Shown here in pieces: positions 7,271 to 19,898 of a stretch of DNA of 19,898 bases; position 1 is the first letter of the stretch; each line of letters opens with the position of its first letter. This stretch comes from Candidatus Altiarchaeota archaeon. Its GTDB lineage: Archaea > Altiarchaeota > Altiarchaeia > IMC4 > QMZM01. The notes under the pieces were generated by a model, which had not been told where the DNA came from, searched no databases, and saw only the letters and a list, made by a program, of their open reading frames with translations. The DNA is taken from NCBI GenBank assembly GCA_038891095.1, contig JAWAEV010000010.1, positions 1 to 19,898 on the forward strand, given 5' to 3'. The position numbers and the translations under genes are program-made.

Positions 7271-7858
7271 TTAAATAACCTTAAGAAATTCTAATATAAA
7301 CAGAAGCATGCCTACAATAATCCCGGCAGAGAGTGTTTTTATTCCTTCTTTTATTGGATTCTCCACTGCAATTTTTCCAACTATAAAACCTAATGAAAAG
7401 AGCATACTCAGAATTAACATAAAAGAAATAAAAAAACCATACTCTAAAGAAAAAAAATTCATAGATGAAAGTATAAATGGCATAGATAGAAGTAAAGAAA
7501 CAAGGAAAGGAGATAGTCCGTCAACTAAAGCCACTAATATTGAAACTTGTGCAAGTTTTCTACCAATTTTAGTTTCATCTAAATCTGTCATAAGATGTTT
7601 TTCCAATTCTTTCAGTTCTCTTAGCCTTTCAGCTCTTTCTGCAGCATAAGCCCCATAAATTCCAGAAACAAACATTGCAATTCCTGCTCCTAAGCATGAT
7701 ACTACAATTATTTTTGCTTCTTTAACATTAGCAAAGAATAAGGCTATTAGTAAACCAAGAATTGTTAGTGCACCATCGAAAGAATTCATCACAAAGTATC
7801 TTCTTATTATGTTATCTTTACCCAAAAATTTTAAATATTTTAAAAGTTTAAATTTCAT
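7271..7858 (-). CDS. VIT1/CCC1-family membrane protein (archaeal metal transporter-like)
   Basis: RRYFVMNSFDGALT, SGIYGAYAAERAE, about 5 TM helices. Confidence 0.85.
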   Translation of the reverse strand: MKFKLLKYLKFLGKDNIIRRYFVMNSFDGALTILGLLIALFFANVKEAKIIVVSCLGAGIAMFVSGIYGAYAAERAERLRELKELEKHLMTDLDETKIGRKLAQVSILVALVDGLSPFLVSLLLSMPFILSSMNFFSLEYGFFISFMLILSMLFSLGFIVGKIAVENPIKEGIKTLSAGIIVGMLLFILEFLKVI

Positions 7859-7878
7859 TTATACTTTGGCTTTTAACT

Positions 7879-8193
7879 TTATGGCACTTCTATAAATTGT
7901 TTTTTCTTACCAAGAATTACTTTATCCATGGAATGAATAACGCCCCCATTATTTTCAATTAATTCTTTAACACGGGAAAAATTCATATTTTCGCCTTCAA
8001 GTATAATTTTCACTGACTCTGTTTTTTCATCTACTGCATAGACAGATAAATTTGCATTTTCAATTGTTGGTTCTCTACAAATTAATTTTCCAAATTCCAA
8101 AATATTTGGTTGATGTGGCTTTAGGACATCTAAAACAAGAAGCCTAACTGGAATCTCCCTTGGATTTTTATGTTCCATTTCTTTCTTATTCAT
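7879..8193 (-). CDS. DUF211 family protein
   Basis: RLLVLDVLKPH and GGVIHSMD motifs; typically paired with the archaeal VIT1-like gene, as here; start uncertain (8193 or 8178). Confidence 0.85.
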   Translation of the reverse strand: MNKKEMEHKNPREIPVRLLVLDVLKPHQPNILEFGKLICREPTIENANLSVYAVDEKTESVKIILEGENMNFSRVKELIENNGGVIHSMDKVILGKKKQFIEVP

Positions 8194-8246
8194 CAAGTTT
8201 TATATATGCTTTTGTGTAATTATTAATATTAATAACAAAATTAAAA

Positions 8247-15949: not shown

Positions 15950-16366
15950 TTAAAAATCTAATCTTGTTGTTATTAACATATCTGATTTTTCCACTCCTGG
16001 AAGAGAGGTTAACTTGTTTTTTATTTCTTTTAGTTTTTTGGTTTTGCCTCTTAGGATTATCAACTCCATGCATTTATCTTTACTAAGATGAAAATGCAAA
16101 TTTGTTTTTATCATTTGTGAATAGAAATGTTGTATTTCAATCAAATTTTTTATAACATTTCTCTTGCTATGTTTGTAAATAATTGAAATAACGCCAATAG
16201 ATTTACCTTTCCCAAGTTTCAATTCGTTCTTTGCTATATACTCCCTTACTGCATCTCTTATTGCTTCAGAACGATTTTTATAATACATTTTCTCTATCAT
16301 AGAATCAAATTTTTTCAATAGACTTGGCTCTAAAGAAACCCCGATGCGAGAAACTTTTTCTTTCAT
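15950..16366 (-). CDS. nikR: nickel-responsive transcriptional regulator NikR
   Basis: RHH domain RIGVSL...NRSEAIRDA; Ni-site residues IQH...HFH.....CME. Confidence 0.93.
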   Translation of the reverse strand: MKEKVSRIGVSLEPSLLKKFDSMIEKMYYKNRSEAIRDAVREYIAKNELKLGKGKSIGVISIIYKHSKRNVIKNLIEIQHFYSQMIKTNLHFHLSKDKCMELIILRGKTKKLKEIKNKLTSLPGVEKSDMLITTRLDF

Positions 16367-16410
16367 ATTAATTCTTTGGTATTACTTAAGTATAAAGATT
16401 TATTAGAAAA

Positions 16411-16437
16411 GTGTTACTATTTTAAAAAAAGTGTTAT
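16411..16437. promoter_or_regulatory. putative NikR operator GTGTTAC-N13-GTGTTAT
   Basis: Two near-identical 7-bp half sites with a 13-bp A/T spacer in the divergent nikR intergenic region; third related heptamer GTATTAC at 16379-16385. Confidence 0.6.
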
Positions 16438-16481
16438 TGCTTTTTAAGTACGAAATCATAATATTCCATAGTTGATTAAAG

Positions 16482-16796
16482 ATGGCATGTTTTCTTGTTC
16501 CTGCAGGAATAGCAGTTATAACAACTTTAATGAGGAAAAAATTCCCAAAAAATTTGCATGTTGAATGGCTAAATTCAATGTTATATGGTGGAGTTTTAAT
16601 GCTTGCTGTTGAGCATATTGCTCATGGAGAAGTTGTGCCATATCCGCCATTTTTAACTAAGGGCATAGAAGAAATTCTCCCAGAAATGATAAAAATTGGC
16701 TTACCGATGACAATATTTGTTTTTATAGCGTGGTATGGGATTGTTATTTTCTCAGAAAAATTAAAATTAAAAAATTTGAAATTTGCAAAAACATAA
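16482..16796 (+). CDS. small 3-TM membrane protein (MACFLVP... type), candidate metal transporter subunit A
   Basis: 104 aa; three hydrophobic segments; N-terminal MAC, MLYGGVLMLAVEHIAHGE, PYPPFLT. Confidence 0.8.
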   Translation: MACFLVPAGIAVITTLMRKKFPKNLHVEWLNSMLYGGVLMLAVEHIAHGEVVPYPPFLTKGIEEILPEMIKIGLPMTIFVFIAWYGIVIFSEKLKLKNLKFAKT

Positions 16797-16797
16797 A

Positions 16798-17082
16798 ATG
16801 TGGTTAGTAACAACACTAACTTTTGCAATTATTGTTACCTTATTATGGTTCAAAAATAGGAAATATAAATTAGATTTCCTTGCTTTAATGCTTTGGGGAG
16901 CAACCATAATGATATTTACTGATCATATTCTTGGATATGAGGGCGGTGATTTTATAGAAATTGAAACAGAAGGTTTAATCACAAATGCTGGTATGTTAGG
17001 AATTTTAATGTTATTACCTTTGATTATAATATGGGCAATCTTACTCTATATTGAAGGCAAAAAATCCAAAATGCTACTCTAA
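16798..17082 (+). CDS. small 3-TM membrane protein similar to the upstream gene, candidate metal transporter subunit B
   Basis: ATG 1 nt after the upstream TAA; 94 aa; MLWGATIMIFTDHILGYE aligns with the upstream MLYGGVLMLAVEHIAHGE. Confidence 0.78.
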   Translation: MWLVTTLTFAIIVTLLWFKNRKYKLDFLALMLWGATIMIFTDHILGYEGGDFIEIETEGLITNAGMLGILMLLPLIIIWAILLYIEGKKSKMLL

Positions 17083-17259
17083 GATAGAAATTGCTCCTGT
17101 AGGGCAAGATGCTTCACATGCTCTACATGCTAAACATTCTTCTGACCTGCCTGAAATTTTCACTTTCTCATCTGTTATAGCATAAATTCCAACAGGGCAA
17201 ATTTCAACACATGCCCTGCAGCCATTGCATTTAGCCAAGTTGATTCTTATCTCAACCAT
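17074..17259 (-). CDS. 2[4Fe-4S] ferredoxin
   Basis: CNGCRACVEICP and CLACRACEASCP. Confidence 0.93.
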   Translation of the reverse strand: MVEIRINLAKCNGCRACVEICPVGIYAITDEKVKISGRSEECLACRACEASCPTGAISILE

Positions 17260-19164: not shown

Positions 19165-19898
19165 TTAGGTCTTTAACGCTTTTTCTAATTCTTCAACAGA
19201 TTCTGGATTTGCTAATGTTGAAATATCTCCTACATCATAACCCTTTACTTTTGCTTTTATAACTCTACGCATTATCTTTCCAGAGCGTGTTTTAGGGAGA
19301 TCTCTAACAAAAGTTATTTTTGATGGTCTTGCAATAGGACCACATTCCTTAGTAACATGGTTAGATAGCTCTTCTTTTAATTTATCTGTCGGTTGAAAGC
19401 CAGATTTTAAGCTAACAAGAGCAAGAATTACCTCACCCTTTATTTCATCTGGTATGCCAACAACAGCTGCTTCTGCAACAGAGGGATGGCTTACCAATGC
19501 TGATTCAACTTCTGCAGTTCCTATTCTATGACCCGCAACTTTCAAAACATCGTCTTCTCTTCCTTGAATCCAAAAATAGCCATCTTCATCTTTTCTTGCA
19601 AGATCACCTGTTAAATAAGCAGTTTTAAATTTACTCCAATATTGCTCTTCATATTTCTTAGGATCATTGTAAATTGTTCTTAACATTGATGGCCATGGTG
19701 ATTTTATAACTAAATGACCTCCTTTATTCACAAGAGGTTTACCTTCATCATTGAAGACATCAACATCAAAACTTGGGAATGGTTTTGTTGCAGATCCAGG
19801 TTTTAGTGGAGTTATTGGTAATGGCGTTATAATAAAGCAACCTGTCTCTGTTTGCCACCATGTATCCATTATTGGGCATTTTTCAGAGCCAATATTTT
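19165..19898 (-). CDS. acs: acetyl-CoA synthetase (AMP-forming), 5'-truncated by the window edge
   Basis: [47 protein letters not shown]; frame open to the window end ([10 protein letters not shown]...). Confidence 0.96.

Follow-up and report, generated by a model that had tools for sequence, protein, structure and literature searches.

The window analysed here, a stretch of 19,898 nucleotides from Candidatus Altiarchaeota archaeon (contig JAWAEV010000010.1), contains a gene for the nickel-responsive repressor NikR that lies head-to-head with two tightly coupled genes for small membrane proteins, which we call subunits A and B. We think it probable that A and B together constitute a so far undescribed nickel uptake permease, heterodimeric, independent of an ATPase and repressed by NikR, and we have few reservations in regarding the pair as a nickel-related member of the NikR regulon. 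A and B fall in no described family of the libraries searched, form an obligate pair, are tied to nikR and to nickel-using pathways in many phyla and stand in the place of nikMNQO in relatives, which makes a pseudo-symmetric, ATP-independent nickel permease the best reading of the data. No description of the family was found in the literature that we searched, with most subscription journals and TCDB lying outside that search. The features on which the argument rests are the following:

15950-16366, minus strand: nikR, 138 amino acids (aa), a ribbon-helix-helix (RHH) nickel-responsive repressor with NikR_C and RHH_1 matches
16411-16437, strand unassigned: candidate NikR operator, GTGTTAC-N13-GTGTTAT, the single match to the pattern in the window
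16482-16796, plus strand: subunit A, 104 aa, three transmembrane (TM) helices, predicted N-out/C-in
16798-17082, plus strand: subunit B, 94 aa, three TM helices, paralogue of A

The nikR gene and open reading frame (ORF) A are separated by 115 bp (16367-16481), and the TAA stop codon of A is followed by a single A and then by the ATG of B. The start of B was placed at this ATG (16798), and not at a TTG at 16783, because the homologues begin with MW. An initial annotation, made from the letters of the window alone, had given the same head-to-head distance, TAA-A-ATG coupling and product lengths, a start of subunit A with M-A-C, and no ATPase or binding-protein gene linked to the pair, and all of this holds for the window.

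The product of 15950-16366 has the two parts of a NikR, an N-terminal RHH domain (residues 7-46 match RHH_1 of Pfam at 1.1e-9) and a C-terminal NikR_C domain with the His/His/His/Cys site (Pfam, 1.4e-24, 86.5 bits against a cut-off of 22), and the NCBIfam NikR models give it 140 and 136 bits, both above their cut-offs (111 for the former). Its nickel-binding residues, which the initial annotation had called intact, are H80, H91, H93 and C99; they are kept in 33-34 of 34 aligned NikRs, and from their spacing we take them to correspond to H76, H87, H89 and C95 of the nickel site of E. coli NikR. The gene is the sole NikR_C match of its own genome.

The alignments identify A and B as paralogues: as single sequences they are 29 % identical in a BLASTP alignment of 52 aa (E 1e-4), and the family profiles align in hhalign over 92 columns with a probability of 97.5 % (E 8e-12), so that the mutual similarity noted earlier is well founded. 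Neither protein has a Pfam or NCBIfam match at E <= 1, CbiM (PF01891), NicO (PF03824) and HupE_UreJ (PF04955) included, profile searches of PDB sequences yielded nothing for the A or the B family (E 2.3 and 0.61), and in the ESM Atlas the matches are solely to clusters labelled 'hypothetical protein'; in these libraries the pair indeed resembles none of the known nickel systems, as had been suspected. Each protein has three hydrophobic segments, in line with the about three TM helices first estimated. Hydropathy and charge pattern fit an N-out/C-in topology; read with the positive-inside rule, the hydropathy predicts that the N-termini lie outside, as do the loops between TM2 and TM3.

Conservation was computed over 80 sequences. 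Thirteen residues of A are identical in all of them (A2, P7, G36, E44, H45, H48, E50, P56, F57, E68, G73, M76 and W84), while M1 and C3 of A were demanded by the trimming pattern, which 79 of the 80 sequences matched. The invariant Cys, Glu, His and Met of A, that is, all its invariant polar residues, map to the predicted outer face. B is invariant only in D42, besides its M-W start; its GYEGG loop is kept in closer relatives. This refines the shared core of acidic, His and Met residues that had been proposed for both proteins: the invariant polar residues belong almost entirely to A (A2, C3, E44, H45, H48, E50, E68 and M76), and B keeps D42 but has a variable His.

The AlphaFold2 model of A has a predicted local distance difference test score (pLDDT) of 87.3, with helices at residues 2-16, 27-47, 56-59 and 62-103, and that of a natural A-B fusion, P0251, has a pLDDT of 85.6 and a predicted template modelling score of 0.78; alignment A3 alone was used for the fusion, as MAFFT placed B-only sequences onto the A half. 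Fold comparison found unrelated helical pieces as the best matches (VIA-align Z 6.9 for A and 6.5 for the fusion; Foldseek E > 2), and scores of such size are not decisive for helical bundles, for instance in comparison with SemiSWEET-type dimers of three-helix bundles. Prediction of the A-B complex from the alignments A1 and A2 gave a score of 0.20 against a mark of 0.32, a result that we count as evidence on binding in neither direction.

The family is large. At 90 % identity the protein collection holds 175 clusters of A and 264 of B, all named 'hypothetical' save a few automatic labels on B. A pattern scan with one genome per species gave at least 556 confirmed loci, and an exhaustive profile search gave 402 representatives (50 % identity) at E <= 1e-3 and 254 at E <= 1e-10. 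The record titles name, among others, Omnitrophota, WOR-3, Patescibacteria, Elusimicrobia, Clostridia, Dehalococcoidales, Hadarchaeota, Thermoplasmata, Methanomassiliicoccales, Thermoproteota, Aenigmatarchaeota, Micrarchaeota and Archaeoglobi.

Pairing, neighbours and operator boxes were counted in the best 80 loci, many of which end at contig edges, so that the counts of neighbours are lower bounds. The initial annotation had proposed a survey of homologue neighbourhoods for pairing and for linkage to nikR, and both were found: the two genes are direct neighbours in 78 of the 80 loci, which come from many phyla, at a median gap of 3 nt, and nikR lies within four genes in 29. One of the two exceptions to adjacency is at a contig end, and the other has no B ORF of at least 45 aa. 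The order is B>A in 45 loci, A>B in 32 and divergent in one. A and B are also found fused, in five of 150 representatives among the matches listed when verified with hidden Markov models (P0251, P0265, P0291, P0352 and P0365), and three or four further proteins look like fusions by eye; a word-index search had found no longer relatives, and the fusions appeared in the exhaustive profile search. In the fusions the B part starts at position 16-24 of the B profile, which is TM2, and TM1 of B is missing, as would be expected if A ends in the cytoplasm and TM2 of B starts from there. The fusions support a physical A-B unit and a parallel orientation of its parts, and the status of A and B as an obligate pair is supported.

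One part of the link to nickel lies in the operators. The published NikR signal is GTGTTAC-N13/14-GTAACAC, and the reversed form GTAACAC-N13-GTGTTAC is known too (Rodionov et al. 2004, PMC545781). The box at 16411-16437 is the sole match in the window to GTRWYAC-N13-GTRWYAY, a pattern that had no match in 200 shuffles, and its half-sites agree with those of the published signal. It lies centrally in the divergent region, 44 bp from each start codon, and its A/T-rich spacer could contain a TATA box. On a relative's contig, about 87 % identical, many indels flank the box (16371-16406 and 16458-16471), and none of those listed falls between. A second match to the pattern in the genome (on contig C7) lies inside the ORF of a 424-aa membrane protein and was rejected as a chance hit. 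Of the nine nikR-A/B spacers taken from relatives, six have a site of the form GTRRCAC-N13-GTGTTAY, itself with an A-rich spacer, immediately ahead of the first start codon, and the same kind of site is present in both nikR-CbiM spacers of relatives. When the 80 loci (844,592 bp) were scanned with GTRWYAY-N13/14-GTRWYAY, 29 of the 31 sites were upstream of the pair or its operon and two were elsewhere. In 13 loci a box is found at most 100 bp ahead of the pair, and 11 of these loci lack a nikR within four genes; in another 13, with nikR>porin>B>A operons, the box precedes nikR or the porin. This gives boxes at A/B in 26 of 80 loci. The linked metal or cobalamin riboswitches that the initial annotation had thought worth looking for were not found with Rfam at gathering thresholds in the window and 13 loci, where a single tRNA was the only match.

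The genes around the pair point in the same direction. Four genes on either side were clustered in the 80 loci, and the cluster representatives were named with Pfam:

NikR within four genes: 29 of 80 loci
NikR anywhere in the available locus DNA: 33 of 80 loci
OprB-type porin beside the pair, co-operonic: 11 of 80 loci
MetA-type outer-membrane channel, co-operonic: 4 of 80 loci
TonB-dependent receptor (TBDR), then ZnuA and an ATP-binding cassette (ABC) ATPase: 4 of 80 loci
LarC: 7 of 80 loci
LarB: 6 of 80 loci
HypF: 3 of 80 loci
HypC-containing proteins: 3 of 80 loci

Layouts that recur are:

nikR>porin>B>A: Omnitrophota
A>B>nikR>TBDR>znuA>ABC: WOR-3 type
nikR< >B>A or nikR< >A>B: archaea
nikR< >B>A <larC<larB: Thermoplasmata
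A>B>larB>larC: Clostridia

Some further neighbours were observed. One genus of relatives has the arrangement B>A>ORF>nikR, in which the ORF, of 411-412 aa, has no Pfam match (L107:1944-3179 in G016, L109:1989-3227 in G005, and also in G012) and may be an extra member of the nickel cluster. In three Methanomassiliicoccales-type loci with no nikR nearby (L048, L053 and L057), the divergent neighbour of B>A encodes a cupin/AraC_binding-like protein that is about 200 aa long and may be an alternative regulator. A conserved ORF of 150 aa, again with no Pfam match, follows A in three Omnitrophota operons (L007:3533-3985, L024 and L025).

In the relatives of the archaeon A/B and the known importer nikMNQO alternate. 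The nikR gene adjoins A/B in 11 relatives, and in two others (G038 and G021) it is divergent from CbiM-PDGLE-CbiQ(-ABC), that is, nikMNQO. Among 41 genomes of the family and order of the window, A/B is present in 17, CbiM above the cut-off in ten and both in none, the CbiM match of G003 having only 21 bits, below the threshold; NicO/NiCoT was found in none of the 41. In an independent bacterial order, 51 genomes gave A/B in six, CbiM in 32 and both in one. That A/B stands in place of nikMNQO in relatives is supported by these distributions. The only genome of the bacterial sample with both belongs to Omnitrophota and has CbiM about 11 kb from B>A on the same contig (G041:C3:392026-392649). In another genome of the archaeal order (G031, L114:658-2057), nikR has as its divergent neighbour an unannotated ORF of 208 aa, with a ZIP-family transporter next in line, and this could be a third solution to nickel uptake in that order.

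The archaeon's own genome (958,546 bp, 93.65 % complete) has a consumer for the nickel. A four-gene operon on another contig than the window (G000:C5, L120:5421-9674) encodes a [NiFe]-hydrogenase of the cytosolic, sulfhydrogenase-like type, with the domains Fer4_22, NAD_binding_1 with an Fe-S domain, Oxidored_q6 and NiFeSe_Hases. It is flanked downstream by a 125-aa ORF with no Pfam match and upstream by a CutA1 gene. The initial annotation had suggested nickel enzymes of acetyl-CoA metabolism as the clients, and this link finds no support here, the nickel client that was found being the four-subunit hydrogenase: at this completeness CdhC (acetyl-CoA synthase) was not found, nor were LarC and HypA, and the 'acs' of the window (19165-19869) encodes the C-terminal portion of an AMP-forming ligase (AMP-binding, acyl/acetyl-CoA ligase type) and not the nickel-dependent acetyl-CoA synthase. 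CbiM, CbiQ, NicO/NiCoT, HupE/UreJ and SBP_bac_5 were likewise not found in the genome, which leaves A/B as the sole candidate nickel entry route seen there.

We hypothesize that A and B would form a pseudo-symmetric 3+3 TM heterodimer in the inner membrane, made when nickel is low and the divergent promoter is free. Ni2+ would be caught at the outer face by a site that is mostly that of subunit A, composed of its N-terminus Met-Ala-Cys3, probably with a free amine and a thiolate, of E44-H45-x2-H48-x-E50 at the outer end of TM2 and of E68/M76 at the start of TM3, with D42 of B completing it. The nickel would then pass between the two three-helix bundles, driven by the membrane potential and by cytoplasmic sinks such as [NiFe]-hydrogenase maturation. 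With ample nickel, Ni-loaded NikR on 16411-16437 would cover the shared promoter and silence both A/B and nikR. The data show the pairing and the fusions, the place of A/B in the NikR regulon as judged from gene position and operator, and the replacement of nikMNQO; transport direction, substrate, liganding residues and energy coupling are parts of this scheme that we infer.

Several observations weigh against this reading. The ligands named (A2-C3, E44, H45, H48, E50, E68 and M76 of A, and D42 of B) are proposed from residue conservation only. The half-sites of the window box are direct, as they also are in relative G023, and those of the published signal are inverted (PMC545781); we infer a functional NikR operator at 16411-16437 all the same, because a single half-site is nearly palindromic (GTnnnAC) and both inverted orientations have been published. 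Relative G006 has no clear box in its nikR-A/B spacer, NikR boxes and riboswitches are both missing from the Clostridial loci, and 47 of the 80 loci show no nikR in the available DNA, many of them ended by contig edges. The alternation with CbiM has Fisher p values of 0.002 in the 41 relatives and 0.02 in the bacterial order, the significance of which is inflated by the kinship of the genomes, and CbiM is also present in two of five A/B genomes of other phyla as well as in one of the six of the bacterial order; these copies of CbiM may be cobalt transporters. Finally, in four WOR-3-type loci A/B stands beside a complete-looking TBDR-ZnuA-ABC set, where it could be an accessory and not the permease.

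This last point leads to the first alternative, that A/B is a nickel-binding accessory or capture module that feeds another system, be it an energy-coupling factor (ECF) module, a ZnuABC-type importer or a sensor. The small size of A and B would suit such a role, as would the succession of A>B>nikR and then TBDR-ZnuA-ABC ATPase in those four loci and the presence of CbiQ/EcfT in eight of the 17 A/B-bearing relatives. A strictly conserved extracytoplasmic N-terminus is also a hallmark of the CbiM/NikM S-components (substrate-binding components), whose metal binding depends on it. An ECF-dependent role is nevertheless made unlikely by the other nine of the 17, in which CbiQ/EcfT was not found and which include five genomes of 90 % completeness or more (G000, G005, G006, G024 and G030). 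The own genome shows no CbiM, SBP_bac_5 or other known nickel importer to be served, most loci have no linked transporter gene, and the nikR>porin>B>A operons stop at A. All in all, we consider a mere accessory rather unlikely.

That A/B is a permease for something else, such as cobalt, another divalent metal or a nickel chelate, we hold to be unlikely. His, Glu, Cys and Met ligands are not specific to nickel, and families of nickel transporters such as NiCoT and CbiM/NikM include cobalt-specific members (PMC2667541). The linkage of A/B is, however, to nikR, larB/larC, hypF and NikR boxes, and no cobalamin genes are among the recurrent neighbours and no cobalamin riboswitches were found in the 14 sources scanned.

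That A/B serves resistance or homeostasis by exporting or sequestering nickel under the control of NikR is very improbable, even though small membrane proteins for metal efflux exist and the NikR of Helicobacter can also activate genes. The position of the boxes, over the A/T-rich promoter core and immediately ahead of the start codons, suggests repression at high nickel. Outer-membrane uptake channels and TonB receptors are found in operons with A/B, nickel-consuming lar and hyp genes are among its neighbours, and A/B replaces an importer, nikMNQO, and has no NiCo riboswitch.

A nickel permease made of A and B would have parallels in several known systems. In relatives NikMNQO/CbiMNQO is, like A/B, divergent from nikR with the same type of operator, and the two alternate across genomes, but there is no similarity in sequence or fold, and its S-component has 6-7 TM helices against 3+3 in A/B. 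CbiM/NikM moreover needs EcfT/CbiQ and an ATPase, whereas none is linked to A/B in the window and no CbiQ was found in the own genome. NiCoT (HoxN/NixA) and HupE/UreJ, like the permease proposed here, take up nickel with no ATPase, in some organisms under NikR, and they share with A/B an acidic-plus-His motif that ends a TM helix; the signature of NiCoT is HX4DH. They are, however, single polypeptides of eight or six TM helices, whereas A/B would be a heterodimer of three-helix paralogues with an N-terminal Cys. Mercury importers of the MerT/MerF type are very small inner-membrane proteins of 2-3 TM helices, with Cys near the start of TM1. A/B differs from them in having no match to a Mer-family Pfam model at E <= 1 and a context of nickel and not of mer operons, and A has a single Cys, with mostly His and Glu as putative ligands, where MerT/MerF have Cys pairs.

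A two-gene cluster of Desulfotalea psychrophila, 422176-177, is marked '?' in Table 4 of PMC545781, with two GTAACAC-N13-GTGTTAC NikR sites whose boxes have the orientation seen in the archaeal relatives here. By that description, on which the comparison is based, it may be an early sighting of the A/B family. What appears to be new in A/B is the unrelated architecture, and what appears to be known is the function of NikR-controlled nickel uptake.

The supply of nickel limits hydrogenases, carbon monoxide dehydrogenase, urease and lactate racemase, and many genomes with such enzymes have no recognisable nickel importer. If our reading is true, A/B would close this gap where the metabolism of uncultured anaerobes is reconstructed, in many lineages, would add a new protein architecture for metal transport and would offer a small component, easy to express, with which engineered hydrogenases or Lar-type enzymes could be provided with nickel. 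A bolder idea, which we put forward tentatively and would sooner bet against, is that A/B represents a new transporter class of two paralogous three-helix subunits (five helices if fused) that is the main entry of nickel in many uncultured anaerobes, among them Omnitrophota, WOR-3, Hadarchaeota, Thermoplasmata, DPANN-type archaea and some Clostridia. It would hold the metal with a membrane-embedded 'nickel hook' of the N-terminal amine/Cys3 and Glu/His, resembling by convergence the metal sites at the N-termini of NikM/CbiM and nickel superoxide dismutase.

The locus is present in hot-spring metagenomes (DNA runs X2, X3 and X6). A 169-nt contig of an RNA-seq library is identical to 16562-16730, within gene A, and gives a weak hint of its transcription, DNA carry-over being possible. 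The rest of the window is AT-rich archaeal DNA that encodes TFIIB, prefoldin, archease, A/V-ATPase subunits, HMG-CoA reductase and mch. A gene for a 2x[4Fe-4S] ferredoxin (17074-17259) is convergent on B and overlaps its final nine bases. Further away, at 7271-8196, a DUF211 protein and a VIT1-like membrane protein, the latter a weak match to this iron/manganese transporter family, are encoded side by side on the same strand, and these two genes are possibly a further metal-handling pair.

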